DNA of 64,000 nucleotides from Hyphomicrobiaceae bacterium (GTDB lineage Bacteria > Pseudomonadota > Alphaproteobacteria > Rhizobiales > Hyphomicrobiaceae): assembly GCA_041397765.1 (NCBI GenBank), contig JAWKWA010000008.1:94726-158725 (forward strand), in the 5' to 3' direction. Positions 1 through 36,083 of the stretch are shown piece after piece (positions within the stretch are counted from its first letter, which is position 1; the number at the start of each line of letters is the position of its first letter). Under the pieces are notes generated by a model. It saw only the letters and a program-made list of their open reading frames with translations. It had not been told where the DNA came from and ran no database searches. The position numbers were made by a program, and so were the translations under genes.

Positions 1-116
1 GCGTCATTCCCCAGGAGGACATCGCCGAGCTGGCGCGCGCCGGCGTCGATCGCGTGTTCCTGTCGGGAACGCCCGTCTCCGACATCGTCGCCTATGTCCG
101 GGGCATCGAGCCATGA
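1..116 (+). CDS. 3' end (partial, runs off window) of a cobalamin-binding domain protein of the methylmalonyl-CoA mutase family
   Basis: Frame ending at TGA 114-116 reads ...VIPQEDIAELARAGVDRVFLSGTPVSDIVAYVRGIEP*, a typical C-terminus of the MCM B12-binding domain. Its stop overlaps the next ATG (ATGA). Confidence 0.5.
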   Translation, partial: VIPQEDIAELARAGVDRVFLSGTPVSDIVAYVRGIEP

Positions 117-1678
117 GCCAGGATGCGACGAGGACCCTCGCGCGCGGCTACGCCGATTCGCCGATGCGGGCGGCCGCCCGCCGCTTCGCCGACCGTCTGG
201 CGCTCGCCGATGCCGGCCGGACCTGGACCTTCGCCGCCTTCGACATTCTCGTCGACCGGCTGGCCGGTGGCCTCGCCGCCCGCCTGGCCGAGGGCGAGCG
301 GGTGGCCCTCTACATGCGCAACTCGCCGGAATACCTGCTTCTCTCGACCGCCATCGAGCGGGCCGGCCTCGTCCGTGTGCCCCTCAATGTCCGCTACACC
401 GCGCTCGAGGTCCGCAACCTGATCGCCGACTGCGGCGCCGCCGCCGTCTGCCATGATTTGCGCACCCTGCCGGCCCTTGGCGAGGCGCTGGCCGGGATTG
501 CCTCCGCCCCCTGGCATTTCAGCGTCGACAGCGAGGACGCGTGCGGCGGTCCCACCTATGGCGAGCTCGCCGCCGCCGCGCCCATCGACGTCGACCGCTC
601 ATCTGCCGATCTCTCCGCCCTCTCCTCCATCAACTACACCTCCGGCACCTCCGGCCGGCCCAAGGGCGTCATGCTGACCCGCGCCAACTGGCGTGCCGTC
701 ACCCGCAACATGATGCTCGACCGGCGCATCTCGGGCGACGACCGGCTCGGCCATATCGGACCGCTGACGCATGCCTCCGGCACCTATTTCCAGCCCTTCT
801 TCCTGCGCGGCGCCGCTTCCGTCGTCGTGACCGAGGGCACGGTCGAGGCACTCCTCGGCGCCATCGACCGCTTCGGCATCACCGGCTTCACCTGCGTGCC
901 CTCGCTGCTCACCCGCGTCGTCAATCATCCCGCCATCGACAGCCACGATCTCTCGAGCCTCGCCTGGATCGGCTACGGCGCCGAGCCCATTCCGCGCAAC
1001 ACGCTGGAGCGATCGCTGGCCCGCTTCGGCCCGGTGCTGACGCAGAACTACGGGCTGACCGAGGCGATGATGACCTGCGCCTTCCTGCCGCCCGCCGATC
1101 ATTTCACCGGCGATGGCGAGTTGCGCACCGGCTCGATCGGCCGCGCCTACTCCTTCGTCGACATCGTGCTGCGCGACGGCGAGGGACGGCCGGTTCCCGT
1201 CGGCGAGATCGGCGAAATCACCATCCGCGCCGAGCATGTCATGGCCGGCTACTGGCGCATGCCCGAGGAAACGGCAAAGGTGCTGCGCGAAGGCTGGCTG
1301 TGGTCGGGCGATCTGGCGCGCATGGATGCCGAGGGCTTCATCACGCTCGCCGGCCGCTCCAAGGACATGATCATCTCCGGCGGATTCAACATCTACCCCC
1401 AGGAGGTCGAAGCCTGCCTGACCGGCTGTCCGGGTGTGCGCGAGGCGGCCGTCGTCGGCATCCCCGACGAGGCCTTCGGCGAGCTGTGCGTCGCCTTCCT
1501 TGTCGCCGACGGCGCCGATGCCCCCGATCCGGAGGTCCTGGTCGCCTGGGCGAAGCCGCGCCTCGGCATCAAGACGCCGCGGCACTGGCGTTTCGTCGCC
1601 GATCTGCCGAAGAACTCCAACGGCAAGCTCGACAAGCCGGCGATCCGCCGCATGAGCGCGGAGATCGACTGGCGATGA
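113..1678 (+). CDS. AMP-dependent acyl-CoA synthetase/ligase
   Basis: 521 aa ORF with the AMP-binding signature YTSGTSGRPKGV and C-terminal ...GEIGEITIRAEHVMAGYW...NSNGKLDKP. ATG at 113. Confidence 0.9.
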   Translation: MSQDATRTLARGYADSPMRAAARRFADRLALADAGRTWTFAAFDILVDRLAGGLAARLAEGERVALYMRNSPEYLLLSTAIERAGLVRVPLNVRYTALEVRNLIADCGAAAVCHDLRTLPALGEALAGIASAPWHFSVDSEDACGGPTYGELAAAAPIDVDRSSADLSALSSINYTSGTSGRPKGVMLTRANWRAVTRNMMLDRRISGDDRLGHIGPLTHASGTYFQPFFLRGAASVVVTEGTVEALLGAIDRFGITGFTCVPSLLTRVVNHPAIDSHDLSSLAWIGYGAEPIPRNTLERSLARFGPVLTQNYGLTEAMMTCAFLPPADHFTGDGELRTGSIGRAYSFVDIVLRDGEGRPVPVGEIGEITIRAEHVMAGYWRMPEETAKVLREGWLWSGDLARMDAEGFITLAGRSKDMIISGGFNIYPQEVEACLTGCPGVREAAVVGIPDEAFGELCVAFLVADGADAPDPEVLVAWAKPRLGIKTPRHWRFVADLPKNSNGKLDKPAIRRMSAEIDWR

Positions 1679-2889
1679 GCGGCACGTCGCAGACGAGGGC
1701 ACGATCGGCCGATCCGCGCGACTGCGTGGTCGTCGCCTTTGCGCGCACGCCGTTCGGGCGCTTCGGCGGTGCGCTCTCGGCGCTCGATGTCGCGGCGCTC
1801 GGCCGCCTCGCCATCGACGAGGCCGTGGCGCGCGCCCGCATCGACGCCGAGGCCGTCGAGGCGCTCTATGCCGGCGTCGCGATGATCGGCGGCGCCATGC
1901 TGACGCCGGCTCGCCGCATGGTTCTCGCCTCCTCGCTGCCCGAACGGACGCCCTCCCTCGCCGTCGATCGCGCCTGCTGCTCGGGGTTGACGGCACTCGC
2001 CCTCGCCCGTCGGCAGATCCTCGCCGGCGAGGCCGATCTCGTCATCGCCGGCGGTGTGGAGGCCTTGAGCGCGACGCCGCGCCTCCTGCCGCGCGAGATG
2101 CGGATGCGCCCCGGCCCGGTCGCGGCCGACGATCCGCTGACCCTCCGCGCACCGTTCCTCGACAAGGCCATCGCCGCCTATACGGGCGAGGAGGCGCTAC
2201 GCAATGGCGTCACCCGCCGGATGCAGGACGAGTGGGCGCTCGAAAGCCATGGTCGCTACTTCGAAGGCGAGGCCGCCGGCCATTTCGCCGCCGAGCGCTT
2301 TGCCGTCGACATGCCGCAGGCTCGGCTCGCCACCGACGAGCAGCCCCGCCGCGACACCTCGCTCGAAAAGCTCGCCGCACTTGCGACCATCTATGGCGGA
2401 CCGACCGTCACCGCCGGCAATGCACCGGGCCTCAGCGACGGTGCCGCCTTTCTCGTGCTCGCATCGCGGGCATTCGCCACCGCTCACGGGCTTGCCATTC
2501 GCGCCACTCTCCGCGCTCATGCCGAGGTGGCGGGCGGCCCGACCTCGGGCACATCGACGCCGGCAGAGGCCATCCGTGCCGTCATCGCGCGCGCTGGTCT
2601 CGGCATCGCCGACATGCGCCTTGTCGAGATCAACGAGGCCTTCGCCGCGACGCCCCTCGTCAGCACCCTGCGGCTCGCCGACGGCGATCCGGGCGAGGCC
2701 CGCTCGCTGCGCGCGCGCACCAACCTCCACGGCGGCGCCGTCGCCATCGGCCATCCGCTCGGCGCCAGCGGTGCGCGCCTCGTCATGACCCTCGCGGCAT
2801 CGCTGGAGCGCCTCGGCGGCGGCGCGGGCGTGGCGGCCATTTGCGGCGGCTTCGGCCAGGGCGACGCCATGATCGTCGAGGTGGCATGA
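1675..2889 (+). CDS. acetyl-CoA C-acyltransferase (thiolase family)
   Basis: ATG 1675 overlaps the upstream stop (ATGA). Protein MSGTSQTRA...VVAFARTPFGRFGG...DRACCSG...NLHGGAVAIGHPLGASGARL has thiolase active-site motifs. The start is taken inside the longer track ORF 541..2889. Confidence 0.85.
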   Translation: MSGTSQTRARSADPRDCVVVAFARTPFGRFGGALSALDVAALGRLAIDEAVARARIDAEAVEALYAGVAMIGGAMLTPARRMVLASSLPERTPSLAVDRACCSGLTALALARRQILAGEADLVIAGGVEALSATPRLLPREMRMRPGPVAADDPLTLRAPFLDKAIAAYTGEEALRNGVTRRMQDEWALESHGRYFEGEAAGHFAAERFAVDMPQARLATDEQPRRDTSLEKLAALATIYGGPTVTAGNAPGLSDGAAFLVLASRAFATAHGLAIRATLRAHAEVAGGPTSGTSTPAEAIRAVIARAGLGIADMRLVEINEAFAATPLVSTLRLADGDPGEARSLRARTNLHGGAVAIGHPLGASGARLVMTLAASLERLGGGAGVAAICGGFGQGDAMIVEVA

Positions 2890-4634
2890 TGGCAGCAGGG
2901 AAGACGACGCCGCCAGGCGATGGGCGCGATGCCCGCCAGGATGGGCCCGCCGGCGCCCGTCCCGCCGATGGCGATCCGATCACCGAGGCGCATCGCGCTT
3001 GGCGCGACGGTGCCTACCGCGCCGCTCTCGGCGAGGTCGGAGAGCGCCGTGACTTCGTCACCGACATTGGCATCGCGGTCGAGCCGCTCTACACCCCGCA
3101 CAGCCTCGCCGACCGCCGGTTCGACTATCTGAAGGATGTCGGCTTTCCCGGCGCCTTTCCCTTCACGCGCGGCGACGATCCGGCGATGTATCGCCGCGCC
3201 CCCTTCATCGTCTCGGCCTATACCGGCTTCGGCGAGGCGCCCGCCTGCAATCGCCGACTGAAACGTCTCGTCGAGCTCGGCGTCGAGCAGCTTCTCCTCG
3301 CCTTCGACCTGCCGACCCAGTGCGGCTATGACAGCGACGACGTGATGGCGGCCGGCGAGGTCGGGCGCGTCGGCGTCGCCATCGACACACTCGCCGACAT
3401 GGAGGATCTTTTCGAGGATCTGCCGCTCGACACGGTGAAGCGCGTCGGCTGCCTCGGCAATGCCATCGGCCCGATCGTCACCGCCATGTTCGTCGCCCTC
3501 GCCGAGAAGCAGGGACTGGCGCCCGCCGACTTCGTGCTCAATCTGCAGAACGATCCCTTGAAGGAATATCTGGCGCGCGGCACGCAGATCCTGCCGGTCG
3601 CTCCCTCCCTCAAGCTCGCCGCCGATCCGGTCTCCTGGTGCGTCACCCATGCCCCGCATTGGTCGCCGCTCACCGTCTGCTACAATCATCTGAATGCCGG
3701 CGGTGCCGGCTCCAGCATGGGCGCGGCGATCGCCCTCGCCAATGCCCGCGCCTATCTCGACGATCTGCTCGCCCGCGGTCATTCGATCGACGAGGTGGCC
3801 CCGCTCCTGCACATGTTCGCCGACGAGCGGCACGATTTCTTCGTGTCGGTCGCCAATATGCGGGCGCTTCGCAAGGTCTGGGCGCATCTGATGCGCGATG
3901 CCTATGGTGCCACCACCGACCGCGCCATGGCCCTCGCCACCACCGTCTACGGTCATGGCCAGGAAGCGCTCGCCGAGCCTATAAACAATCTGGTGCGCAT
4001 CGCCTTCGGCACGCTCGCCTATGTCATGGGCGGCGCCTCATATGTTTACATCGCCTCCTATGACGAGGCCGTCGGCATCCCGTCCGAGGAGACGGTGCGC
4101 GCCGCCGTGCGCACGCAACAGATCATCGCCCACGAGCATGGCTTCACCGATACGATCGACCCGCTCGGCGGCTCCTGGCTCGTCGAGAGCCTGACGATCG
4201 ACATCGAGCGGCAGTTGCGGGACGGCCTCTCGGCCATCGAAGCGATGGGAGGCGCTCTTGCCATCATCGACAACGGCTATGGCCGCAAGCTCATGTCGGA
4301 AGGGGCGGGGCGTCGCCAGAAGCGCATCGATACGGGCGCGCGTCCCTGGGTGACGGTCAATCTTCATCGTCAGGAGCCGAACGTGCCGAACACCGCCTTC
4401 CGCATCGACCCCGCGACCGGCGACCGGCAGATCGCACGCCTCGCTGCCGTCAAGGCGCGCCGCGACGGCGCGCGCGTCGCCGCCGCGCTTGCCGAGATCG
4501 ATCGGGCCTGTGCCGAAGGCCGCAACGTCATGGAGCCGACACTCGAGGCGGTGCGCGCCTATGCGAGCATCGGCGAGATCGTCGATGTCTGGCGCCGCCG
4601 CTACGGCGAGTTCCAGCCTTCGACCGCATTCTGA
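2886..4634 (+). CDS. acyl-CoA mutase catalytic (large) subunit, MCM family, without a fused B12 domain
   Basis: ATG 2886 overlaps the thiolase stop. Protein ...FPGAFPFTRGDDPAMYRRAPFIVSAYTGFG...LAFDLPTQCGYDSDDVMAAGEVGRVGVAIDTLADMEDLF... is homologous to the MutB/IcmA/HcmA TIM-barrel domain. At about 582 aa there is no C-terminal cobalamin domain. Confidence 0.8.
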   Translation: MMAAGKTTPPGDGRDARQDGPAGARPADGDPITEAHRAWRDGAYRAALGEVGERRDFVTDIGIAVEPLYTPHSLADRRFDYLKDVGFPGAFPFTRGDDPAMYRRAPFIVSAYTGFGEAPACNRRLKRLVELGVEQLLLAFDLPTQCGYDSDDVMAAGEVGRVGVAIDTLADMEDLFEDLPLDTVKRVGCLGNAIGPIVTAMFVALAEKQGLAPADFVLNLQNDPLKEYLARGTQILPVAPSLKLAADPVSWCVTHAPHWSPLTVCYNHLNAGGAGSSMGAAIALANARAYLDDLLARGHSIDEVAPLLHMFADERHDFFVSVANMRALRKVWAHLMRDAYGATTDRAMALATTVYGHGQEALAEPINNLVRIAFGTLAYVMGGASYVYIASYDEAVGIPSEETVRAAVRTQQIIAHEHGFTDTIDPLGGSWLVESLTIDIERQLRDGLSAIEAMGGALAIIDNGYGRKLMSEGAGRRQKRIDTGARPWVTVNLHRQEPNVPNTAFRIDPATGDRQIARLAAVKARRDGARVAAALAEIDRACAEGRNVMEPTLEAVRAYASIGEIVDVWRRRYGEFQPSTAF

Positions 4635-4651
4635 GCAGGGAGCATCGGGCA

Positions 4652-6412
4652 ATGAGCACCAAGAGCGCCGGGCCGGATGACGCCGGGGCGAAGCGGCCGG
4701 GAACCGTCGATCCCTTCACCATGGTGGTGCTGCGTCGCCGCATGGAGGCGATCATCCGCGAGATGGTCAATGCGCTCCTGAAGTCCGGCCGCTCCGGCGT
4801 GCTCAACACGGCGATGGACTTTTCCTGCTCCCTGACCGATGCGCGTTTCCAGTCGGTGAGCGTTGCACTCGGGCTGCCGGTGCATGTCGGCGCCATCGAC
4901 CTCATTCCGCGCAAGGTCGCCGAGAAGCATGGTTCGACCCTCGCCCCCGGCGATTGCTTCGCCAACAACAGCGGCTACCACGGCAACACGCATTGCGCCG
5001 ATTTCACGCTATGCGTGCCGGTGTTCTACGAGGGTCGCGTCGTTTTCTATACCATCGCCCGCGCGCATCTGGGCGACATGGGCTTTCCGATACCCTCCAC
5101 CTACAACCCGGCCGCCCGCGACGTCTATGAGGAAGGCCTGATGCTGCCCTGCATCCGCGTCCAGCGGGATGGCCGCGACATCGAGGACGTGATCGACATC
5201 CTGAAGGCGAACATCCGTGCGCCCGAGCAGTTCTATGGCGACTATCTCGCCTGTCTCGCCGCGGTGCGCACCGGCGAGAAGCGCCTGAAGGAGTTGTGCG
5301 CCCGCTTCGGCACCGATCTCGTCGAGCGCTTCATCGACGAGTATCAGGACTACGCCGAGCTGATGGCCAAGGATGCCATTTCGCGTCTCCCCAAGGGCCG
5401 CGTGACGCGATCGGTGCGCTACGATTCGGAGCTTGCGCAATATCCCGACGGCATTCCCGTGACGGCGACGCTCGATGTCGATCCTGACGCCGGCCGCGTC
5501 GTCATCGACCTGACGGAGAACATCGACAATCTGCCGCTTGGCATCAACATGACCGAGAGCACCGTGCTCGCCTGCTGCCGCATGGGCACGCTCAACGTGC
5601 TTGGTCCCGACGTGCCGCGCTCGGCCGGTGCATTCCGCCGCATCGAGGTGAGGATGCGCGACGGCTCGGCGATCGGCCGGCCGGTCTTTCCCGCCGCAAC
5701 CTCGGCCGCCACCACCAATCTCTGCCATCTGCTCGCCTCGCACATCCAGGCCCTCTATGCCGATCTCGTCGATGGTCTCGGCTCCGCCTACGGCTCCGTC
5801 GGCCTGCCGGGCTCCTGCCCCGTCGTCAGCGGCCGCGACCCGCGACGCGGCAATCGCCCCTTCGTCAACCAGATCATCATGGGCTACTGGGGCGGCCCGG
5901 CCGTCGCCGGTCACGACGGCTGGCTGACCTACGGCAGCGCCGCCTCGCAGGGCATTCTCTGGCAGTCGAGCGTCGAGATCGTCGAGCAGCAGCAGCCGAT
6001 CCTGATCGAGGAGCTGTCGATCCGGGAGGATTCGGGTGGCGCCGGCGCCAGCCAGGGCGGCCCGGGCTCGCGTGTCGTCTTCCGCCCGCGCTTCGGCCCC
6101 GTGCGTTTCGCGATCAACGCCGCCGCGCACGACAATCCGCCCGAAGGCATGCGCGGCGGTCTGCCGGGAGCGCCGACGCGCATCAGCCGCATCGCCGCCG
6201 ACGGCACCCGCACCGATCTCGGCATCACCATCGACGTCACGCTCGGTCCGGGCGAGCGGCTGCTGTCGGAAGCCTGCGGCGGCGGCGGCTATGGCACACC
6301 GGCGGAGCGCCCCGCCGATCGCATCGCCGCCGACATCGCCGATGGCGTCCTGACGCCCGCACATGCCGCCAAGGTCTATCCCCGGCAGGCCCGTGAGGGG
6401 AGCGGTCGCTGA
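4652..6412 (+). CDS. hydantoinase B/oxoprolinase family protein (HyuB-like, ATP-dependent amidohydrolase beta subunit)
   Basis: 586 aa. The N-terminus DPFTMVVLRRRMEAIIREMVNALLKSGRSGVLNTAMDFSCSL..GYHGNTHCADF is characteristic of Hydantoinase_B. RBS gggag upstream. Confidence 0.85.
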   Translation: MSTKSAGPDDAGAKRPGTVDPFTMVVLRRRMEAIIREMVNALLKSGRSGVLNTAMDFSCSLTDARFQSVSVALGLPVHVGAIDLIPRKVAEKHGSTLAPGDCFANNSGYHGNTHCADFTLCVPVFYEGRVVFYTIARAHLGDMGFPIPSTYNPAARDVYEEGLMLPCIRVQRDGRDIEDVIDILKANIRAPEQFYGDYLACLAAVRTGEKRLKELCARFGTDLVERFIDEYQDYAELMAKDAISRLPKGRVTRSVRYDSELAQYPDGIPVTATLDVDPDAGRVVIDLTENIDNLPLGINMTESTVLACCRMGTLNVLGPDVPRSAGAFRRIEVRMRDGSAIGRPVFPAATSAATTNLCHLLASHIQALYADLVDGLGSAYGSVGLPGSCPVVSGRDPRRGNRPFVNQIIMGYWGGPAVAGHDGWLTYGSAASQGILWQSSVEIVEQQQPILIEELSIREDSGGAGASQGGPGSRVVFRPRFGPVRFAINAAAHDNPPEGMRGGLPGAPTRISRIAADGTRTDLGITIDVTLGPGERLLSEACGGGGYGTPAERPADRIAADIADGVLTPAHAAKVYPRQAREGSGR

Positions 6413-8508: not shown

Positions 8509-9434
8509 GCTTGAGCGAGCCGCTCGTCTATCTGAACGGCGAGTTCGTCCCCGAGAGTGCCGCCAAGGTCAGCGTCTATGACCGCTGCTTCCTCTACGGC
8601 GACGGGGTGTTCGAGGGCATCGCCGTCTGGGAGCGCGCGCCGTTCCGCCTCGGGTCGCATCTCGACCGTCTGTCGCGCGGCCTGCGCTATCTGATGATCG
8701 ACGAGCCGCTCGACCATGACGGCTGGCGCGAGGTGATCCGCGAGCTGATCCGCCTGAACGACATGCAGGACGGCTATCTCCGCCTCCAGCTCAGCCGCGG
8801 CGAGGGCATGAGCTCGATCAAGTGGGAGAAGCGGCTGCTGCGCAAGGCGTCGCCCAATGTGACGATCATCCCGGTCGCCGGCTTTGCGCGCTACTACGCC
8901 GGCCTGCTCGACGAGAAGAACGAGCGCGGCCTGAAGGCGATCACCGTTCCGCGTCCGCGCATCGCCTCGCACGCCGTGCCGACCGGCATGAAGCACTGCA
9001 ACTACCTGGGCAGCGTGCTCGGTGCGATCGACGTGACCGGACGCGGCGCCGACATCGGCATTTCCGTCGATGCCGACGGCTTCGTCGCCGAGGGCATCGC
9101 CTACAACGTGTTCATCGTCGTCAACGGCCGCATCCTGACGCCACCGACGACGCGCGACATCCTGCCCGGCATCACCCGCGACGTCATCGTCGAGCTCGCC
9201 GAGGCGAACGGCATACCCGTCGCCGAGCGTGATTTCGACGCCTATACCATGGCCTCCGCCGACGAGGCGTTCATTTCATCGACGCTCGAGCTTGCCGTGC
9301 CCGTCGTCTCTCTCGATGGCCGTACCATCGGCGAAGGCCGTCCAGGACCCGTCGCGCGGCGCATGGGCGCGCTCCTGAAGGACGCCATGACGCGCGAGGC
9401 GGCCGACTTCCATGCAACCCGCCAGGCGGGCTGA
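8505..9434 (+). CDS. PLP fold-type IV aminotransferase (branched-chain / D-amino-acid / (R)-amine transaminase class)
   Basis: ATG 8505 overlaps the HyuA stop. Protein MSLSEPLVYLNGEFVPESAAKVSVYDRCFLYGDGVFEGI...NYL...GITRDVI... is typical of class IV aminotransferases. Confidence 0.8.
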   Translation: MSLSEPLVYLNGEFVPESAAKVSVYDRCFLYGDGVFEGIAVWERAPFRLGSHLDRLSRGLRYLMIDEPLDHDGWREVIRELIRLNDMQDGYLRLQLSRGEGMSSIKWEKRLLRKASPNVTIIPVAGFARYYAGLLDEKNERGLKAITVPRPRIASHAVPTGMKHCNYLGSVLGAIDVTGRGADIGISVDADGFVAEGIAYNVFIVVNGRILTPPTTRDILPGITRDVIVELAEANGIPVAERDFDAYTMASADEAFISSTLELAVPVVSLDGRTIGEGRPGPVARRMGALLKDAMTREAADFHATRQAG

Positions 9435-9452
9435 GCGGCCAGCCGCGACACG

Positions 9453-10235
9453 ATGAGGAGGACTTCCATGGAGAACTTTTCCGACCTGACCGGCAAGACC
9501 ATCCTCGTCACGGGCGGCTCGCGTGGTATCGGCGAGGGCATCGTCCGCGGCCTCGTCAGGCAGGGCGCCCATGTCGTGCTCAACTATTCGACGAGCGGCA
9601 AGAGCGCCGAGGCGATCGCCGACGAGCTCGGCCGCGATCGTTGTCTTCCCGTCCATGCCGATCTGGCGAAGCTCGAGGATGTCGAGCGCTTGTGGAAGGA
9701 CGCCGTCGCCTGGCGCGGCCGCATCGACGTTCTCGTCAACAACGCCGCCGTCAGGAAGCCGATTGCCATCGACGCGCCGGCCGAGGCCTGGGACGAGCAT
9801 TGGATGACCGCCTTCCGCATCAATCTGCTGGCGACCGCGCATCTGTGTCGCCTCGCCATCGGCCATTATCGCCAGACGGGTGGCGGCTCGATCATCGGCA
9901 TCACGGCACGCATCGCGGTGCGCGGCGATCGCACCAACTTCTTCCACGATGGTGCCATGAAGGGCGGCATGAACTCGCTGCTCCGCGGCATCGCGCGTTT
10001 CCATGCCAAGGAGAACATCGACACCTATCTCGTTTGCGTCGGCGTGGTCGAGACCGAGCAGGCGCGCGACATGGTCGACATCTACGGCCGGGACGAGATG
10101 CTGCGCGAGATCCCGGCCGGCCGCTTCGGCACGCCCGCCGAGGTCGCCGATACGGTGGTGCTGTGCGCCGGCGGACGCATGAAATACGCGACCGGCTGCA
10201 CCATCGATCTCGTCGGCGCGTCCTTTCTGCATTGA
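9453..10235 (+). CDS. short-chain dehydrogenase/reductase (SDR)
   Basis: Rossmann motif TGGSRGIGEGI with NNAA, and a YxxxK region. RBS gaggagga 8 nt upstream. Confidence 0.85.
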   Translation: MRRTSMENFSDLTGKTILVTGGSRGIGEGIVRGLVRQGAHVVLNYSTSGKSAEAIADELGRDRCLPVHADLAKLEDVERLWKDAVAWRGRIDVLVNNAAVRKPIAIDAPAEAWDEHWMTAFRINLLATAHLCRLAIGHYRQTGGGSIIGITARIAVRGDRTNFFHDGAMKGGMNSLLRGIARFHAKENIDTYLVCVGVVETEQARDMVDIYGRDEMLREIPAGRFGTPAEVADTVVLCAGGRMKYATGCTIDLVGASFLH

Positions 10236-10267
10236 GCTGGCCGCGATTCTTGAGGGAGAACGGGAAC

Positions 10268-12526
10268 GTGACCAGTATCGGCAGATCGATCAAGCGCTTC
10301 GAGGACGAGCGACTGCTGCGCGGCGAGGGCCGGTTCGTCGAGTCGCTGATCCCCGGCGGCGCGCTCGAGGCGATGTTTCTCCGCTCGCCCTTCGCTCATG
10401 CCCGCATCGCACGGATCGACTGCACCGCCGCGCGCGCCATGCCCGGCGTGGTCGGGGTGCTGACGGGCCGCGATCTCGTCGACGCCGGTGCCGGGCCGCT
10501 GAAATGCCGCCGCACCATCCCGAGCATCGACGGCACCCCGTTCCACGAGCCGGTCCGCCATGCGCTCGCCCTCGAGACTGTGCGCTTCGTCGGCGAGGCG
10601 GTGGCCCTTGTCATCGCCGAAAGTCGCGCGGCGGCACTCGATGCCCTCGACATGATCGAGGTGGACTACGACCCGCTGCCGCTCGTGGTCGATCCGCTGA
10701 AATCGACCGAGATCGCCTTCACATGGGCGCAAGGCGACCGTGACGCCACCGACGCCGTCTTCCGCACGGCGCCGCTCGTCACCAGCTTTTCCGGCACCAG
10801 CTCGCGCATGGCCGCCGTGCCGATCGAGCCGCGCTCGGCCATCGCCGAATACGATCCGGTGGCGGCACGCTATCGCCTGGTGACGCAGAGCCAGGGTGTG
10901 CACCTGTTGCGCGCCGCCTACGCGTCCTCGCTCGGCATCGCTCCCGAGGCACTGCATCTGCAGACATTCGATGTCGGCGGCAGCTTCGGCATGAAGCTGA
11001 TCCCGCATCCAGAGCCGATCGCGCTGCTGACGGCTGCAAGGCTCGTCGGCCGCACCCTGGCCTGGGTCTCGACGCGCTCGGAGGCCTTCCTTTCGGACAA
11101 CTACGCGCGCGACCAGACCGCGACCGCCGAGCTGGCGATGGATCGCGACGGCACCTTCCTTGCACTCAGGATCTCCAGCACCGGCAACATGGGAGCCTAT
11201 GCCTCCTCATCGGCCCCGGGCGTGATGGCGATCCACTTCGCCCGCACCGTCGGTCATGTCTACCGCATCCCCGTCCATCACGTTCATGTCACCTCGGTCT
11301 ACACCAATATGACGCCGACGGATGTCTTCCGTGGCGCCGGAAAGCCGGAATCGACGGTGCTGGTCGAGCGTCTCATCGACCGTGCCGCGTGCAGGCACGG
11401 CTTCGATCGCCTCGATCTCAGACGCCGCAATCTCGTGACGCCCGCCGACATGCCGCGCCGCACGCTGTCGGGCCACATGATCGACGGCGGCGACTTCCCG
11501 CGGACGCTCGATCATGCGCTGGTGAGGGCAGATTGGCGCGGCTTCGAGGCGAGGCGCGCCGAGACGCTGTCACGCGGCCGGCTGCGCGGCATCGGCGTCG
11601 GTCTCTACATGCACGTCACCAGCCACCCCGTCGTCGAGGAATGTCGCGTCCGCCTCCTCGGCGATGGCACATTCGAGGCGACGATGGGTGCGCAAGGGAT
11701 CGGCCAGGGGCACGAGACCACATTTTCCCAGCTACTCGGCGACACGCTGAAGGTCGAGCCGGACGCCATCCGCATCGTCCAGGGCGACAGCGCCGTGCTT
11801 CCCCCCGTCGGCGCCGCGACCGGTGGCTCGGGCTCGATCCAGGTTACGGGCCTCACACTTCTGAAGGCGGCACGCCTTCTCATCGATCGGCTGCGACCCG
11901 AGGCCGCCGAGATGCTCGAGGCCTCGCCCGCCGATCTCGAGCATGCGACCGGCGGTTTCCGCATCAAGGGCACCGATCGCGCCGTCGGCTTCGCAGCCAT
12001 CGCCGGCCGCATGGACGACGACGCGCGCGAGGACTGCGCGGGCGATGCGCATTTCGAGGGCGATGCCGCCACCTGCCCGAACGGTGCCTACATCGCCGAG
12101 GTCGAGGTCGATCCGGCGACCGGCGAGGTCGAGATCCTGCGCTTCTCCGGCGCCGACGATGTCGGCCGGCGGCTCAACCCGATGATCGTCGATGGCCAGC
12201 TCCATGGCGGCATCGCCCAGGGTATCGGCCAGGCCATGCTCGAGCGCGTCGTCTACGACGAGGAGAGCGGACAGCTCCTCTCCGGCAGCCTCATGGACTA
12301 CGCGCTGCCGCTCGCCAGCGACTTGCCGAGCTTCGAGCTGGTCGCAGCCGATTGCCCCTCCTCGCAGAACGAGCTCGGCATGAAGGGCGCCGGCGAGTGC
12401 GGCACGATCGGCGCGCCCGGCGCGCTTCTCAACGCCATAGCCGACGCGATCGGCACCGACGAGTTCGACATGCCGGCGACGACCGAGCGGGTCTGGCGCG
12501 CGATACGCCTGAAACGGGGAGACTGA
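10268..12526 (+). CDS. molybdopterin-dependent hydroxylase large subunit (xanthine dehydrogenase/CoxL family, form II-like) without adjacent Fe-S or FAD subunits
   Basis: GTG start 10268 within track ORF 9641..12526. N-terminus SIGRSIKRFEDERLLRGEGRFVESL is a classic XDH/CoxL large-subunit start. VFRGAGKPE motif present. About 752 aa. Confidence 0.8.
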   Translation: MTSIGRSIKRFEDERLLRGEGRFVESLIPGGALEAMFLRSPFAHARIARIDCTAARAMPGVVGVLTGRDLVDAGAGPLKCRRTIPSIDGTPFHEPVRHALALETVRFVGEAVALVIAESRAAALDALDMIEVDYDPLPLVVDPLKSTEIAFTWAQGDRDATDAVFRTAPLVTSFSGTSSRMAAVPIEPRSAIAEYDPVAARYRLVTQSQGVHLLRAAYASSLGIAPEALHLQTFDVGGSFGMKLIPHPEPIALLTAARLVGRTLAWVSTRSEAFLSDNYARDQTATAELAMDRDGTFLALRISSTGNMGAYASSSAPGVMAIHFARTVGHVYRIPVHHVHVTSVYTNMTPTDVFRGAGKPESTVLVERLIDRAACRHGFDRLDLRRRNLVTPADMPRRTLSGHMIDGGDFPRTLDHALVRADWRGFEARRAETLSRGRLRGIGVGLYMHVTSHPVVEECRVRLLGDGTFEATMGAQGIGQGHETTFSQLLGDTLKVEPDAIRIVQGDSAVLPPVGAATGGSGSIQVTGLTLLKAARLLIDRLRPEAAEMLEASPADLEHATGGFRIKGTDRAVGFAAIAGRMDDDAREDCAGDAHFEGDAATCPNGAYIAEVEVDPATGEVEILRFSGADDVGRRLNPMIVDGQLHGGIAQGIGQAMLERVVYDEESGQLLSGSLMDYALPLASDLPSFELVAADCPSSQNELGMKGAGECGTIGAPGALLNAIADAIGTDEFDMPATTERVWRAIRLKRGD

Positions 12527-12528
12527 GC

Positions 12529-14892
12529 ATGGCCGACGAGCTTCCGCGCAACGCCGATGTGGTCGTGATCGGTGGTGGCATTGCCGGGTTGATGGCGCTC
12601 TACAATCTGGCGCGGCTCGGTGTCACCGACACGGTACTGGTCGAGCGACGCCAGCTCGCCTGCGGCACGACATGGCATTCCGTCGGCAGCGTCGGCCAGG
12701 TGCGCGGCTCGCGCCTCTTGACCGTGCTGTCCGGTGCGACAGCCGCGCTCTTGCCCGAGATCGAGCGCGAGACCGGCATGTCGACCGGCTACAAGCGCTA
12801 CGGCTCGATCGGCCTCGCATTGACCGAGGAGCGGCTGGAGGAGTTCCGCCGCACCGTTTCGTCGGCCTCGGCATGGGGGCACGAGGCGGCGATCCTCTCG
12901 CCCGGCGAGATCAAGGAGCGCTATCCCGCCGTCGAAGTCGACGACGTCAAGGGCGGTCTCTTTCTTCCAGGCGACGGCCGCACCAATCCGATCGATACGG
13001 TCCAGGCGCTCGCCAGGGCCTGCCGCCAGCGCGGCGCGCGCATCTTCGAGGAGACGCGCGTCGACGACATCGTGGTGGAGGATGGGCTCGTTCGGGGTGT
13101 TCGCACCTCGCGGGGCGACATCCTGGCCGAAAAGGTGCTGCTCTGTGCCGGCATGTGGAGCCGCGACATCGCCGAGCGCATCGGCGTCACCATTCCGCTG
13201 CTCGCCGCCGAGCATTTCTACGCCGTCACCGAGCCGATCGAGGGGCTCGCGCGCGACACGCCCATGGTACGTGTTCCCGACGAGCGCACCTACTACAAGG
13301 AGGATGCCGGCAAGCTGCTGTTCGGTTGCCTCGAGGAGGTCGCCAAGCCCTGGGGCATGGCCGGCATTCCCGAGAGCTTCTGCTTCGATAGCCTGCCGCC
13401 CGACCTCGATCATTTCGCACCGATCCTCGAGACTGCCATGGAACGCATGCCGCTCCTGAAGGAGGTTGGCATCAAGCTGTTCTTCAACGGTCCCGAGAGC
13501 TTCACGCCGGACGGCAACTTCCACATCGGCGAGACCGCCGAGGTGCGCAATCTCTTCGTCTCGTGCGGTTTCAATACCATCGGCGTCATGGCCTCGGGCG
13601 GCATCGGCCGCATGGCCGCCGAGCTGATCGTCGACGGCCGCGCCAGCGTCGATATGACCGGCACCGATGTTCGGCGCGCCGCGCGCTTCGAGACGAACGT
13701 CTCCTACCTCACCGAGCGGATCACCGAGGGCCTCGGCAAGCTCTACGGCCTGCAATGTCCCGACCAGACCTATACCTCCGCGCGCGGCGTCCGGCGCAGC
13801 CCGCTGCACGCCGATCACATTGCCGCCGGTGCGGTGATGGAGCATGTCGCCGGTTTCGAGCGGCCGGCCCTGTTCGCCCCGGCCGGGGCCGCCGCCCTCC
13901 ACGTGCCGACCTATTTCCGCCCGGCCTCGCACGACTGGGTGGCGGCTGAACAGCCCGCCGCACGCGAGAGGCCGCCGCCGTCTTCGACCAGTCGGCCCTC
14001 GCGAAGCTGACGCTGGCCGGCCGCGATGCCGCCGCTGCCCTGGCTGAAATCGTGACCCGCATGCCGGAGCACGGCGCGCCGTCCGTTCGCAGCCTGATCC
14101 TCGATGGCGCCGGTTGTCGAGGCGATCGTCCAGGTCGTCCGCATTCCTGGCCGAATACCCTTCGTCATCGGCGCCCCCGGTGACGAGCGCCGGCTCCTCG
14201 CGCTTCTGTCGCGCCGTCTGCCGGAGGGGCTGCACGCCGTCGTTCTCGACGCCACCGCCGGTTATTGCCTCCTCGACATCTTCGGTCCCGACCGCTCCGA
14301 TGCCTTGCGGCGCGCCGGTCGCCGGCCCCGTGCGGGTGATGCGGACATGGCACCGCAGCTCGACCTTGGCCTCGGCCTGACGCGCGCCGTCGAGGGCGGC
14401 GAGCATGGCCTCGACGTCACGCGCCTGATCGTCGCCTCCGACATGGCCGCGCACATCTACGAGGCCGTGACGGCGGCCGCGGTCCGCCCGATCGGCAGCC
14501 ATGCCTTCCATGCGCTCCGTCTCGAGGCAGGCCGTCCCGCCTGGGGCTCGGAGATCGACCAGACGACCATGCCGGCCGACGCCGGGCTCTCCGAGGCCGC
14601 CGGCCTCAACCGCGCCGCCGATGCGGTGCCCGCGCTCTGCCGCATCGTGCTCGAGCGCGCCGACGAGCGCCTGATCGGTCGCGAGCCGATCCGCCGCGAC
14701 GGCGAGGTCATTGGCTCGGTGGTCTCCGGCGCCTTCGGCCATGGGATCGGCCGGCCCGTCGGCTTCGCCTTCGTCGCATCGGCCGCCGACCGGCCGCGTC
14801 CCGGCGCCGAGGACATCGCCGTCGATGTCGAGATCGCTGGCCGGCCGGGCCGTGCACGCCTCATGGCCCTGCCCGGCGAGGAGATGGCCTGA
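12529..14892 (+). pseudogene. dimethylglycine/sarcosine dehydrogenase-like FAD oxidoreductase fused to a GcvT folate-binding domain, interrupted by two compensating frame shifts (about 13967 and about 14100)
   Basis: Frame 1 from 12529 gives DVVVIGGGIAGL...HDWVAAEQPAARE. Frame 0 (13950-14100) gives AAAVFDQSALAKLTLAGRDAAAALAEIVTRMP...LILDGAG. Frame 1 again (14104-14892) gives VVEAIVQVVRIPGR...LRLEAGRP...GREPIRRDGEVIGSVVSG. All three pieces align colinearly to DMGDH (FAD domain then GcvT domain). The frame-1 reading hits TGA at 14008. Confidence 0.6.
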
Positions 14893-15070
14893 AGGCTGAA
14901 GGGAGGACTCCTCTCGCGCAAGACCTCGTCGTCCGATGTCGCGCCGGTGATGGACGCGACCACCCGTCGCTTTCGGACGGGCGCGAAGGCCCGAGGACGC
15001 GATATCGAGGTGCTGACGGCGCCAGTGCCGACGCCGCCACGCCCCCCGCCCGCGGTGACAGGGACCGACC

Positions 15071-15553
15071 ATGACCGAGCAGCCGCAGCGACCTTCGAGA
15101 TTTGCAGGGATCTCCAACCGGCGCCGTGCCGTCTATGCCTTTCTCGCATCCATCCTGATCGGCCCGCCCATTGGCGGCATCTCTGTGATGCTCGGGCTCG
15201 CCCTGGCGTCCCTCGTCTCCGGCGATGCCAATTCCGGCGAGAGCGCCCTCGGCTTTCTCGCCGCGATCCCTGTCGTCGCCATCTTCTCCTACATCGCCGG
15301 CGGCCTTCAAGCGTTGGTCTGCGGCCTCATTCTCGCCATCCCGGTCGCCCGCACGGGCCATGTCGGGCTTGGCTTGACCGCCGGCGTCGCCGGCTTCGTC
15401 GGCATGTTGCGTGGCGGCGCCGTCTTGTTCGCCGGCGAGACCATCGTCCCGGCCGGGTTGCTCTTCGTCGCGCCCGCTCTGGTATCGGCCATCGGCTGCC
15501 GCGCTTTCCTGCTCTGGCTCGGCATCCTGCGGCGCCAGCCCCGGCGGGAGTGA
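15071..15553 (+). CDS. hypothetical small integral membrane protein (4 predicted TM helices)
   Basis: 160 aa ORF with hydrophobic stretches (ILIGPPIGGISVMLGLALASLV..., AAIPVVAIFSYIAGGLQALVCGLILAI...). Weak RBS aggga. No recognisable family. Confidence 0.4.
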   Translation: MTEQPQRPSRFAGISNRRRAVYAFLASILIGPPIGGISVMLGLALASLVSGDANSGESALGFLAAIPVVAIFSYIAGGLQALVCGLILAIPVARTGHVGLGLTAGVAGFVGMLRGGAVLFAGETIVPAGLLFVAPALVSAIGCRAFLLWLGILRRQPRRE

Positions 15554-36079: not shown

Positions 36080-36083
36080 GGGC

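Follow-up and report, generated by a model that had tools for sequence, protein, structure and literature searches.

A probable catabolic operon in a Hyphomicrobiaceae bacterium, organised like the anaerobic indoleacetate pathway

At one end of a 64-kb stretch of Hyphomicrobiaceae DNA (the whole of which is referred to here as the window), genes for a CoA ligase, a B12-dependent mutase and a thiolase adjoin genes for hydantoinase-type, transaminase, molybdenum and demethylase-like proteins, which raises the question of whether they serve one pathway, and of what kind. A preliminary description held that the combination matches no pathway that can be named. This missed the anaerobic indoleacetate (iaa) operon, a precedent that joins hydantoinase-like enzymes with a ligase, the phenylsuccinyl/benzylmalonyl-CoA mutase IaaGH and beta-oxidation (PMC8360864; PMC9613470). 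Our analysis leads us to regard the cluster as a real, uncharacterised variant of an iaa-like pathway, and we favour, with moderate confidence, the reading that the block is one operon for a conserved alphaproteobacterial catabolic route of this organisation. We found no characterised cluster with this composition, in keeping with the earlier view of the block as a candidate for an undescribed pathway.

Gene content and layout of the block

Pfam places each gene in the family that had been named for it:

..116, + strand: B12-binding small subunit of the split mutase (B12s), 3′ end, 37 codons; 68% identity to the orthologue in locus L001
113..1678, + strand: AMP-forming acyl-CoA ligase (lig), 521 aa; AMP-binding (243 bits) and AMP-binding_C
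1675..2889, + strand: thiolase (thl), 404 aa; Thiolase_N and Thiolase_C
2886..4634, + strand: large, substrate-binding mutase subunit (mutL), 582 aa, SAY/ARGTQ/CYNH subfamily; MM_CoA_mutase (476 bits)
4652..6412, + strand: Hydantoinase_B-type subunit (HyuB), predicted ATP-dependent lactamase, 586 aa; PF02538 (408 bits)
6412..8508, + strand: Hydantoinase_A-type subunit (HyuA), 698 aa; Hydant_A_N, Hydantoinase_A and Hydant_A_C
8505..9434, + strand: BCAT-like fold-type IV aminotransferase (AT4), 309 aa; Aminotran_4 (160 bits)
9453..10235, + strand: short-chain dehydrogenase/reductase (SDR), 260 aa; adh_short and adh_short_C2
10265..12526 (GTG start inferred), + strand: molybdopterin-binding large subunit of the xanthine-oxidase/CoxL family (MoL), 753 aa; Ald_Xan_dh_C, MoCoBD_1 and MoCoBD_2
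12529..14892, + strand: DMGDH/sarcosine-dehydrogenase-like flavoprotein with a GcvT folate domain, with two frameshifts; DAO, FAO_M, GCV_T and GCV_T_C

A GC3 frame plot and the translations confirmed these co-directional genes and their limits, with the GTG start of the molybdenum gene at about 10265. According to the translations, the junctions lie exactly where they had been placed (four ATGA overlaps at 113, 1675, 2886 and 8505, a 1-nt overlap at 6412 and a 2-nt gap at 12527), and the remaining gaps of 17, 18 and ~29 nt keep all intergenic distances at or below 30 nt. The ten-gene block originally proposed stands for nine genes, which are intact and run in the same direction (1-12526), and not for the tenth, DMGDH-like gene, which is broken by two frameshifts and three in-frame stops. 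Within 1-17000, a consensus scan found no sigma-70-like site, and terminator-like hairpins did not exceed those in shuffled sequence (5 versus a mean of 5.0); this is compatible with the single transcription unit claimed earlier, without proving it. The 5′ part of the operon is outside the window: of the first gene, which encodes a 134-aa subunit, just the final 37 codons are included, so the operon begins ~300 nt upstream of the window. The translated end, VIPQEDIAELARAGVDRVFLSGTPVSDIVAYVRGIEP followed by the stop codon, shares 68% identity with the C-terminal end of its L001 counterpart (PF02310, 134 aa), and full-length orthologues of this subunit carry the DxHxxG motif.

In the sequence as given, the DMGDH-like gene falls into two ORFs (12529-14010 and 14104-14892), with frameshifts near 13,965 and 14,112. 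Frame 1 meets a stop at 14008-14010 and two more after it, while frame 3 encodes the conserved N-terminal GcvT sequence 'AAAVFDQSALAKLTLAGRD...SLILDGAG' (~13,971-14,114), after which frame 1 resumes. Correspondingly, Pfam finds DAO and FAO_M on 12529-14007 and GCV_T (profile positions 105-253 only) with GCV_T_C on 14104-14889, and the N-terminal part of GcvT that is missing there is supplied by frame 3 (13971-14114). The frame-corrected product (783 aa) and its L001 orthologue, which is intact at 774 aa, share 64% identity, intact orthologues measuring 771-794 aa; for the Aminobacter orthologue, the nearest structure is human DMGDH (357 bits). The two frameshifts compensate each other; as it stands, the gene is either a pseudogene or affected by two assembly indels. 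Its interruption in this genome was counted against the reading of the block as one pathway.

Conservation in relatives

The gene order is the same in L001, a locus of a second Hyphomicrobiaceae MAG, at 64-81% amino acid identity and with LysR divergent from B12s-lig-thl-mutL-hyuB-hyuA-AT4-SDR-MoL-DMGDH. In Aminobacter carboxidus DSM 1086, ten of ten families are found in two divergent operons (mutL-MeaB-thl-lig-B12s and LysR-hyuB-hyuA-AT4-SDR-MoL-DMGDH-CoxG), and the Rhodobacteraceae keep nine, the core being convergent with hyuB-hyuA-AT4-SDR-DMGDH-ABC transporter-SDR2-RidA. The hyuBA-AT4 genes are also neighbours in L007, L010, L014 and L025. The gene-neighbourhood comparison called for earlier thus bears out a functional unit, the ten families being co-located in three arrangements across Hyphomicrobiaceae, Aminobacter and related Alphaproteobacteria, with nine in Rhodobacteraceae. 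Since relatives keep the same gene set, the cluster is probably one uncharacterised pathway. Individual genes follow the same pattern: of 24 subfamily loci, 17 have the ligase gene beside those of the mutase, and in L001, L087 and L088 the aminotransferase is followed by an SDR orthologue (66-77% identity). The AT4 orthologue family is small, with ~115 clusters above 50% identity before a drop to 44%; its members almost always share a contig with the mutase, and at least 15 long AT4 contigs are equal in length to mutase-bearing ones.

It is unlikely that two unrelated modules adjoin here, namely an acid-degrading ligase/B12-mutase/thiolase set and an N-methyl-lactam module in its own right (HyuBA, transaminase, SDR, molybdenum subunit and DMGDH-like enzyme), juxtaposed and co-transcribed by chance or with no more than a regulator in common. 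The core set does occur alone, in 12 loci from Betaproteobacteria, Sphingomonas and others that hold the mutase subunits, usually together with MeaB, the CoA ligase and thiolase, with a TctC binding protein or TauD/SnoaL/FAH/ADH genes upstream, and in Aminobacter and Rhodobacteraceae each half has a strand of its own. Such independence is, however, difficult to reconcile with co-location kept through three rearrangements and four families, with the contig sharing of AT4 and mutase, or with the mere 17 nt between the halves in the window. Moreover, whether a locus has hyu/AT4 goes along with the mutase type, Y or V, and with F or L at the neighbouring pocket position: Y-type mutases (CYNHLNAG/AFDLP) are found in loci with the hyu/AT4 module, and V-type mutases (C[VM]NH[IL]N[AS]G, mostly ALDLP) in the 12 core-only loci, of which none has hyu or AT4. 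One Y-type mutase, in L021, has neither within 10 kb.

Nitrogen-side enzymes and a candidate route

By sequence comparison, HyuB and HyuA appear to be of the lactamase type, closest to caprolactamase and far from acetone carboxylase. The nearest structure for HyuB is CapB (6yra_B, 238 bits; acetone carboxylase alpha only 48 bits), and HyuA matches CapA (6yra_A, 416 bits) ahead of N-methylhydantoinase (373) and acetone carboxylase beta (188), with scores of 268 and 560 against the NCBIfam CapB and CapA models, under the cut-off of 1000 in both cases. The gamma partner reported missing is indeed absent.

The aminotransferase had been linked to (R)-amine and D-amino-acid transaminases, an assignment contradicted by its BCAT signature (the Y-x-R motif, Tyr95/Arg97, together with the catalytic Lys) and by its nearest structures, the archaeal BCATs 5cm0 and 5e25 (219 bits). 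Arg40 is replaced by Ala, Thr or Ser in 113 of 113 orthologues. A BCAT-like transaminase expects an alpha-carboxylate, which constrains the ring-opened product without identifying it.

The molybdenum subunit matches CoxL (8uem, 441 bits), 6-hydroxypseudooxynicotine dehydrogenase (363) and quinoline 2-oxidoreductase (355), and contains GAGE. In CO dehydrogenase the loop motif is VAYRCSFR; here the loop reads VFRGAGK, without the cysteine. Its orphan status holds, as no CoxS-type 2Fe-2S motif was found in the 64-kb window or the orthologous loci, whereas the positive control L017 was detected. At least 14 contigs carry both a homologue and the cluster, yet the Rhodobacteraceae version does without the subunit, which is therefore not indispensable. 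In L090, an orphan molybdenum subunit (52% identical) stands beside a HyuB/HyuA pair that is not orthologous, together with CoxG, a CoA ligase and an OCD/mu-crystallin protein of the imine reductase family, suggesting that the Mo/Hyu pairing is a recurring one.

The conversion of a lactam or N-heterocycle to acyl-CoA, as first proposed, remains the best general reading, for which we infer both step order and substrate class. What the data themselves show is which genes are present and in what frames, the families they belong to, the active-site residues, the preserved co-location and the modular distribution. First, a ring compound containing nitrogen, probably a cyclic amine or amino-acid derivative that carries an N-methyl group, would be oxidised beside the ring nitrogen by the DMGDH-like flavoprotein, its N-methyl group passing to tetrahydrofolate, and the CoxL-type subunit, where present, would yield the lactam. 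HyuB/HyuA would then open the lactam at the expense of ATP, like caprolactamase and 5-oxoprolinase, and the freed alpha-amino acid would be deaminated by the transaminase, the SDR providing a redox step. Finally, the core module would activate the acid through the CoA ligase, rearrange its skeleton through the split AdoCbl mutase and release central acyl-CoAs through the thiolase. Counted against a single pathway are the lack of acyl-CoA dehydrogenase and enoyl-CoA hydratase genes in the cluster, of FeS and FAD electron-transfer partners for the molybdenum subunit within 64 kb, and of a MeaB chaperone or transporter in the window.

HyuBA might instead act in salvage, reopening lactams formed when amino-acyl-CoA or gamma/delta-amino-acid intermediates cyclise spontaneously. 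Chemically this is conceivable, with a CoA ligase in the cluster and a transaminase that implies an amine-bearing intermediate, and 5-oxoprolinase, which the caprolactamase/oxoprolinase-like HyuBA resembles, does likewise for glutamate-derived 5-oxoproline. However, HyuBA is conserved as strictly as AT4, and its genes head their sub-operon in both Aminobacter and Rhodobacteraceae, traits that would better suit a main-line enzyme and that make salvage decidedly unlikely.

The split mutase and the indoleacetate precedent

The mutase belongs to a distinct subfamily, in which RQY is changed to SAY and GYH to (Y/V)NH; the substitutions of Arg87-Gln88 by Ser-Ala and of Tyr243 by Asn are invariant. 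Gln197 and His244 are conserved, and the equivalents of Tyr89 and Arg207, which bind the carboxylate in methylmalonyl-, ethylmalonyl- and phenylsuccinyl-CoA mutases, are invariant across the subfamily and also retained in all the 'DLPTQCGY' split mutases that were compared, an iaa-like enzyme among them. This pair speaks against the 'branched acid' (ICM/HCM/PCM-like) mutase proposed initially, and makes a 1,2-shift of the substituted succinyl-CoA/substituted malonyl-CoA type most likely, an assignment that could be wrong given that the enzyme differs from all characterised ones at Arg87/Gln88/Tyr243. With such a product, extra enzymes encoded elsewhere would be needed before the thiolase, which itself scores 336.7 against TIGR01930 (cut-off 240.55) and has the motifs CCSG, NEAF and GHPLGASG.

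An ordinary split methylmalonyl-CoA mutase for propionate or branched-chain amino-acid catabolism, with incidental neighbours, would agree with the conserved Tyr89, Arg207, Gln197 and His244, with the public annotation ('methylmalonyl-CoA mutase family protein') and with the similarity of the ligase to malonyl-CoA synthetases (213 bits, after feruloyl/fatty-acyl-CoA synthetases at 245; no NCBIfam model is matched above cut-off). It is nonetheless very improbable, as the protein scores 389 against the NCBIfam MCM equivalog (cut-off 876), carries the subfamily-wide substitutions and is dedicated to clusters under LysR regulation that have their own ligase, thiolase and MeaB. Degradation of 2-hydroxyisobutyrate proceeds through a ligase, mutase, dehydrogenase and thiolase. 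Our ligase, mutase, SDR and thiolase would resemble that order, and HcmA is the best PDB match of the mutase (346 bits; human MCM 303), but the HCM specificity residues Ile90, Asp117 and Gln208 are Tyr, Ala and Arg here, leaving a pathway of this type (Hcl, HcmAB, MeaH, dehydrogenase, thiolase) for a tertiary alcohol acid hardly tenable.

The iaa operon reported by Ebenau-Jehle in 2012 is said to include a Mo-hydroxylase part; on that basis, the two systems have in common a Mo-hydroxylase, a hydantoinase-like pair, CoA ligase, B12 mutase and thiolase. The iaa-like locus L063 (thiolase, ligase, HyuB, ACAD, HyuA, B12 subunit, mutase) shares six families with the cluster. That the cluster is itself an iaa orthologue degrading indole-3-acetate is nevertheless scarcely credible, in view of identities to L063 of just 26-48% (HyuB 26%, thiolase 29% over 182 of 404 residues, ligase 36%, HyuA 37%, mutase 42%, B12 subunit 48%, measured on the L001 orthologue), of the divergent mutase motifs (RQY/GRGTW/CGYH in L063, SAY/ARGTQ/CYNH here), of the absence by Pfam of an IaaF-type ACAD and a family-III CoA transferase among the ten genes, and of a transaminase and N-demethylase that would be superfluous for an aniline-type intermediate. 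Compared with iaa, the cluster lacks IaaF and IaaL and has the BCAT-like transaminase, the SDR and the DMGDH-like enzyme in addition.

The ten-gene block, its setting and its conservation

Because the G+C content of the window is ~70%, raw ORF lists are full of spurious frames; over the first ~14.9 kb, the third-position GC plot never marks more than one coding frame, and it lies on the + strand. This span holds ten consecutive + strand genes, identified by translation and assigned to families by Pfam.

Genes of the block, followed by the two features downstream of it
..116, +, B12-binding protein (small mutase subunit), last 37 codons
113-1678, +, AMP-forming CoA ligase
1675-2889, +, thiolase
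2886-4634, +, mutase large subunit
4652-6412, +, HyuB, 586 aa
6412-8508, +, HyuA
8505-9434, +, fold-IV aminotransferase (AT4)
9453-10235, +, SDR
~10265 (GTG) to 12526, +, molybdopterin large subunit
12529-14892, +, DMGDH-like gene
15,071-15,553, very hydrophobic ORF of 160 aa between operon and ruvB, without Pfam match
15,635-16,681, ruvB

The preliminary description, made from the sequence alone, had placed the gene junctions exactly (ATGA at 113, 1675, 2886 and 8505; one shared nucleotide at 6412; two intergenic nucleotides at 12527), and Pfam bears out the family that it gave to each gene; the remaining intergenic gaps are 17-29 nt. Its ten co-directional genes likewise stand, except that the tenth, the DMGDH-like gene, is broken. 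The first gene enters the window with only its 37 C-terminal residues; L001, a locus from a second Hyphomicrobiaceae MAG, shows that the 134-aa B12-binding subunit is the first gene of the operon, and the orthologues in L001 and in a further homologous locus, L002, carry DGHDVG (the DxHxxG motif).

Frame 1 of the DMGDH-like gene has a stop at 14008-14010 and two further stops before 14104, and lacks the N-terminal part of GcvT, which is encoded in frame 3 from ~13,971 to 14,114, after which frame 1 resumes. The interval 13,940-14,130 therefore holds two compensating frameshifts ~150 nt apart, with three stops between them. Joining the three pieces yields a 783-aa DMGDH-like protein that is 64% identical to the intact L001 orthologue and 44-48% identical to the Rhodobacteraceae and Aminobacter orthologues. 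DAO, FAO_M, GCV_T and GCV_T_C are all found in the gene (Pfam) but are split by the frameshifts and stops, and the single polypeptide typical of the DMGDH/sarcosine dehydrogenase family is not encoded in the window; the orthologues are intact, with the complete DAO/FAO_M/GcvT architecture. Internal stops occur neither in the other nine block genes nor in the housekeeping genes scanned; the compensating shifts are therefore a local feature, which may mean that the gene is really a pseudogene or that the assembly is in error. The closest structure is mammalian DMGDH (357 bits between human DMGDH and the Aminobacter orthologue), and the protein contains TTWHS, which we take to be the covalent-flavin His motif of DMGDH.

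In a consensus scan of the operon region, promoter-like and terminator-like sites were not commoner than in shuffled sequence, and an Rfam scan of the window and three orthologous loci returned no family, cobalamin riboswitch included. On its 3' side the operon is followed by a 178-nt gap, the small hydrophobic ORF and ruvB, with no recognisable ruvA-like ORF immediately before the latter; farther on come lepA, dnaJ/dnaK and further housekeeping genes. Given these downstream genes, the ten-gene block is a discrete insertion in the chromosome amid core genes. Antisense within hyuB, ARAGORN called a 96-nt tRNA-Pro(CGG) at 6192-6287 (-); the Rfam tRNA model has no match there at gathering score, so that this is in all likelihood a spurious call within GC-rich coding sequence.

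The mutase and the Mo subunit match proteins on a 207.6-kb contig of one Hyphomicrobiaceae MAG at 100% identity. A gene-neighbourhood comparison, which the preliminary description had proposed, found the ten genes in unchanged order in L001, behind a divergent LysR gene and at 64-81% amino-acid identity. All ten families are also co-located in Aminobacter carboxidus DSM 1086, on JACZEP010000005.1 at ~165.8-193.2 kb, rearranged into two divergent operons, one with mutase large subunit-MeaB-thiolase-ligase-small B12 subunit and the other with LysR-hyuB-hyuA-AT4-SDR-Mo large subunit-DMGDH-CoxG. In Rhodobacteraceae, the core (small B12 subunit, ligase, thiolase and mutase large subunit) is convergent with hyuB-hyuA-AT4-SDR-DMGDH, a PotD-type ABC transporter, a FabG-like SDR and RidA, and the Mo subunit is missing. 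The hydantoinase-type pair (HyuBA) with AT4 lies near the mutase in Parvibaculaceae, Mesorhizobium, Dongiaceae and further MAGs as well. The AT4 orthologue group is small, with ~115 clusters above 50% identity before a fall to 44%; at least 15 long AT4-bearing contigs equal mutase-bearing contigs in size, and none of the AT4 orthologues is on a plasmid. One 55%-identical aminotransferase outside this group has an unrelated context. In at least 14 cases, the Mo subunit and the cluster lie on a common contig. That the genes have stayed together through three rearrangements argues strongly for a functional unit. The cluster is real, conserved, modular and uncharacterised.

A distinct subfamily of split acyl-CoA mutases

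The most interesting part of the cluster is its mutase, which represents a populous, sequence-distinct acyl-CoA mutase subfamily altered where MCM and HCM are conserved. Among solved structures, HcmA comes closest to the window mutase (346 bits), ahead of the human and Propionibacterium MCMs. With MCM and ethylmalonyl-CoA mutases it shares the PF01642 fold, the residues Tyr89, Arg207, Gln197 and His244 (alignment to 1req_A, human MCM), the small-subunit DxHxxG of the orthologues and, in most loci related to the cluster, a MeaB chaperone gene. In MCM, the Tyr89/Arg207 pair binds the free carboxylate of the substrate; the equivalent Y112 and R231 are invariant in 29 subfamily members. The cluster mutase differs from MCM and ethylmalonyl-CoA mutases in being split, and in having Ser-Ala for Arg87-Gln88 and Tyr/Val-Asn for Gly242-Tyr243. 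Both sites are conserved in MCM and HCM; in the window mutase they read Ser-Ala and Tyr-Asn, changes that are invariant in the 29 subfamily members.

A residue-by-residue comparison shows that the mutase is not of the HCM, ICM or PCM type. The cluster resembles the Hcl/HcmAB/MeaH system of Aquincola tertiaricarbonis in its split subunits, dedicated CoA ligase and G-protein chaperone, but the HCM specificity residues Ile90, Asp117 and Gln208 are replaced in the window mutase by Tyr, Ala and Arg (alignment to 4r3u_A), which rules out HCM/2-HIBA function. ICM/PCM function is ruled out by the presence of Tyr/Arg rather than Phe/Gln, and a true MCM by the SAY/YNH motifs together with the NCBIfam score (389.2 against the MCM equivalog NF006944, below its cut-off of 876).

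When two peptides of the subfamily, DLPTQCGY and F[PA]DERHDF, were searched for in 185,579 species genomes, 21 loci of the subfamily were recovered, along with 59 split mutases that are more distant (~40% identity). Tyr89 and Arg207 are kept in all of them, and motif clades can be distinguished.

Motif clades among the scanned split mutases
Actinobacteria: RQY / SRGTW / AG(A/S)H
Acidobacteria and Nitrospirae: GMY / ARGTY / SGYH; thiolase adjacent
Two iaa-like loci: RQY / GRGTW / CGYH
Window subfamily: SAY / ARGTQ / (Y/V)NH

The actinobacterial clade is large (L035-L038, L041-L059, L061, L062 and L064-L086, from Streptomyces, Mycobacterium, Nocardia and others); here Tyr243 is replaced by Ala or Ser, the B12 subunit usually comes after the mutase, and a CoA ligase is often nearby.

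The window subfamily itself comes in two forms, type A (Y type), with CYNHLNAG, YLARG and AFDLP in most members, and type B (V type), with C[VM]NH[IL]N[AS]G, YIARG and ALDLP in all but one; among the best 120 database matches, ~45 are of the Y type and ~75 of the V type. Type A consists of the window and 12 loci, 10 of these 13 having the hydantoinase-type genes and/or AT4 within 10 kb; of the remainder, two reach contig borders and L021 is without this module. Type B consists of 12 loci from Betaproteobacteria, Sphingomonas and others (L004, L008, L011-L013, L015-L019, L022 and L027, with the mutase at ~10,001 in the full-length loci), none of which has hydantoinase-type genes or AT4. Their core is the large and small mutase subunits, usually with MeaB and often with ligase and thiolase, and it stands behind a TctC carboxylate-binding protein or together with TauD/SnoaL/FAH/Zn-ADH, a Rieske oxygenase, an amidohydrolase, a tungsten AFOR or an acyl-CoA dehydrogenase (ACAD). 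This suggests that the same core takes an acid delivered by quite different upstream routes. The pocket residue that separates the two types tracks the feeder module, and from the distribution of types A and B the ligase-mutase-thiolase core thus appears as a portable carboxylic-acid module with differing feeders.

Predicted lactam-opening, transaminating and molybdenum enzymes

The closest solved structures to the hydantoinase-type pair are those of caprolactamase (HyuA against CapA, 416 bits; HyuB against CapB, 238 bits). The pair is also close to N-methylhydantoinase and remote from acetone carboxylase, the 586-aa HyuB scoring 48 bits against the alpha subunit of the latter. Against the NCBIfam caprolactamase equivalogs, the scores of 560.5 (CapA) and 268.6 (CapB) are both below the cut-off of 1000. 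Ketone carboxylases have one or more extra small subunits and a long HyuB-type alpha subunit of ~776 aa. ORF calls and translations revealed no additional small gene beside or between hyuB and hyuA, and the cluster genes include neither a hydantoinase small subunit nor a carbamoylase, in agreement with the preliminary description. Acetone- or acetophenone-type carboxylation is ruled out by the missing small subunit and the CapB-like HyuB, and the creatinine/N-methylhydantoin and 5-substituted hydantoin routes by the missing carbamoylase. The most economical reading is that HyuBA is a predicted ATP-dependent lactam hydrolase. In the caprolactam pathway of Pseudomonas jessenii, CapAB opens the lactam at the cost of ATP and the freed amino acid is transaminated. 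The cluster can be likened to it in this principle; it differs in the attached B12 mutase module and in its transaminase, which is BCAT-like and of fold type IV, whereas that of the caprolactam pathway is reportedly an omega-transaminase of class III.

The aminotransferase scores 219 bits against archaeal BCATs versus ~110 bits against (R)-amine and D-amino-acid transaminases, and 202 against TIGR01122 (cut-off 245.55). It has Y-L-R (Tyr95-x-Arg97), the catalytic Lys and GDGVFEG, while Arg40, which in E. coli BCAT holds the distal carboxylate of glutamate, is Ala in the window and A/T/S across all 113 orthologues. With Tyr95/Arg97 kept and Arg40 lost, the enzyme is expected to take an alpha-amino acid as substrate and might use a partner other than glutamate.

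The Mo large subunit is complete (Pfam), carries the catalytic-Glu motif GAGE and is nearest to CoxL, 6-hydroxypseudooxynicotine dehydrogenase and quinoline 2-oxidoreductase. At the active-site position where form I CoxL has the loop VAYRCSFR with its Cu-binding Cys, it reads DVFRGAGKPE, and it scores below the cut-offs of the NCBIfam CO dehydrogenase models; CO dehydrogenase is ruled out by the missing Cys loop and the missing CoxS/CoxM. No CoxS-type 2Fe-2S motif was found in the window, L001, L087, L002 or L090 (the motif was found in the control locus L017), and no FAD_binding_5 protein among the window genes scanned, so that the lack of small and medium Mo-hydroxylase subunits, already remarked on in the preliminary description, holds within the window. 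By the defining features tested, the predicted products of the cluster include no MCM, HCM, caprolactamase or CO dehydrogenase.

Another orphan Mo large subunit, 52% identical to that of the window, occurs in the unrelated locus L090 (7,425-21,777), accompanied by CoxG, an OCD/mu-crystallin protein, a CoA ligase, a luciferase-like oxygenase, an MR/MLE enzyme and TctA. L090 also has a HyuB/HyuA pair, non-orthologous to that of the window, and so offers a second pairing of a lone CoxL-type subunit with lactamases. That the pairing recurs speaks for a partnership of the two kinds of enzyme, the Mo enzyme presumably forming a lactam which HyuAB then opens.

Relation to the indoleacetate operon and a possible route

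The preliminary description could name no pathway with this enzyme set; a precedent does exist in the anaerobic indoleacetate (iaa) operon of Aromatoleum aromaticum and A. evansii, which encodes a hydantoinase-like pair, a CoA ligase, the IaaGH mutase converting phenylsuccinyl-CoA to benzylmalonyl-CoA, and beta-oxidation (PMC8360864, PMC9613470). Common to iaa and the cluster are the HyuA/HyuB-like pair, the CoA ligase, the split AdoCbl mutase and the thiolase (Pfam; L063, an iaa-like locus). The enzyme list of Ebenau-Jehle et al. from 2012 is said to comprise a xanthine-oxidase-family Mo enzyme, hydantoinase-like proteins, the ligase IaaB, IaaGH, the ACAD IaaF, the CoA transferase IaaL and beta-oxidation enzymes including a thiolase; Schuhle et al. 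reportedly also dealt with the Aromatoleum operon in 2016 and 2021. A xanthine-oxidase-family Mo enzyme would then be found in both, that of the cluster being a lone large subunit. The cluster matches the iaa logic of hydroxylating beside the ring nitrogen, opening the lactam, forming the CoA ester, rearranging the skeleton and thiolysing.

L063 (1-10,967, a contig of an Ectothiorhodospiraceae MAG) was called iaa-like by gene order alone: its order, thiolase-ligase-HyuB-ACAD-HyuA-B12 small subunit-mutase, fits iaaABC(F)EGH, and it is probably an indoleacetate operon outside the taxa usually cited. The window proteins are 26-48% identical to those of L063, and the mutase motifs differ (RQY/GRGTW/CGYH in the iaa-like locus, SAY/ARGTQ/CYNH in the cluster). 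Pfam found no Acyl-CoA_dh or CoA_transf_3 domain in the ten genes, and an ACAD query had no match in the window; the cluster is thus without the decarboxylating ACAD IaaF, the CoA transferase IaaL and the hydratase/dehydrogenase fusion of iaa. It adds the BCAT-like transaminase, the SDR and the DMGDH-like demethylase, and its hosts are mostly aerobic Alphaproteobacteria, unlike anaerobic iaa. Indoleacetate degradation is rejected for the low identity and the missing IaaF/IaaL, and these differences, together with the other mutase motifs and the added genes, make the cluster an analogue of iaa, not a member. The added transaminase, SDR and N-demethylase would make sense if ring opening left an aliphatic (N-methyl)amino group on the product instead of an aniline. 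A full-text literature search joining hydantoinase with methylmalonyl-/acyl-CoA mutase gave no match, and a looser one led to iaa. The cluster, first put forward as a candidate for an undescribed pathway, indeed has no characterised identity, but with iaa its enzyme set is not wholly unprecedented. Similar logic is reported for the nicotinate fermentation of Eubacterium barkeri, for which Alhapel et al. in 2006 are said to have described a Mo hydroxylase forming a cyclic amide, hydrolytic opening, a dehydrogenase and a B12 mutase; there, reportedly, an enamidase stands in place of HyuAB, and 2-methyleneglutarate mutase acts on the free acid instead of an acyl-CoA.

Gene content, conservation, families and active-site residues are as observed in the data; from them, we infer the step order and substrate class of an iaa-like route. 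It would begin with oxidation beside the ring nitrogen by the flavoprotein, the Mo subunit being optional, followed by ATP-dependent opening of the lactam by HyuBA, removal of the N-methyl group to tetrahydrofolate, transamination and a redox step by the SDR. CoA activation, an AdoCbl-dependent 1,2-shift of a carboxylate-bearing acyl-CoA and thiolysis would complete it. Its weak points are the absence from the cluster of an ACAD or hydratase to act between mutase and thiolase, the absence of MeaB and a transporter from the window, a Mo subunit without electron-transfer partners and, in the window genome, the broken DMGDH-like gene.

An alternative chemistry would do without an enzyme between mutase and thiolase: a shift of 4-oxoacyl-CoA to 2-methyl-3-oxoacyl-CoA followed by direct thiolysis would make the three-gene core of ligase, mutase and thiolase self-sufficient, but no report of a 4-oxoacyl-CoA mutase was identified, a literature search on levulinyl-CoA and mutase having returned one paper, on making propionic acid from levulinic acid in Pseudomonas putida. 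HyuBA, for its part, might not be the entry enzyme of the iaa-like route but serve in salvage, reopening an amino-acyl intermediate that cyclises spontaneously.

As a joint reading, which we put forward tentatively and consider possible though rather doubtful, the SAY/ARGTQ/(Y/V)NH mutases would form a new class of AdoCbl acyl-CoA mutases with an undescribed reaction; in Alphaproteobacteria, their feeder would be a module for opening lactams and removing amino groups, by which some common natural compound, an N-methylated cyclic amine or amino-acid derivative, is broken down, and the orphan Mo subunit would work without canonical FeS/FAD partners. The reaction may concern a substituted succinyl- or malonyl-CoA with a polar or nitrogenous side chain, or it may be the 4-oxoacyl-CoA shift. 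N-methylpyrrolidone-type lactams, 5-oxoproline/6-oxopipecolate derivatives, kainoids, trigonelline-type pyridones, opine lactams and levulinate-forming gamma-lactams are neither favoured nor ruled out by the sequence alone.

To our knowledge, the acyl-CoA mutase specificities described so far are few (MCM, ECM, ICM/IcmF, HCM/RCM, PCM and the iaa enzyme), and every new one that we know of proved useful in pathway engineering. The conservation of the cluster turns it into a testable pathway hypothesis in the cultured Aminobacter carboxidus DSM 1086, Rhodoligotrophos defluvii, Nitratireductor soli and Rhodobacter sp. SGA-6-6. Identifying the substrate would bring to light a further route of N-heterocycle or lactam catabolism and would test whether a lone CoxL-type subunit functions with HyuAB-type lactamases, a pairing that recurs in the unrelated L090.

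Elsewhere in the window, long ORFs on both strands at 18,870-21,100 and 23,063-24,109 have no Pfam match at 1e-5, and GC3 is ambiguous at 18.9-19.8 kb. Three further genes are grouped within 12 kb, with an RND efflux pump (32,984-37,853) and a PfkB kinase among them:

28,919-29,533, AlkB-like 2OG-Fe(II) oxygenase
38,666-39,544, endonuclease III
40,047-41,099, Ada-like gene (HTH_18 and O6-methylguanine methyltransferase)

At 50,176-55,485, a rubrerythrin-VIT1 fusion gene stands beside DUF1513 and di-haem oxidoreductase (DHOR) genes, a set that looks iron-related.
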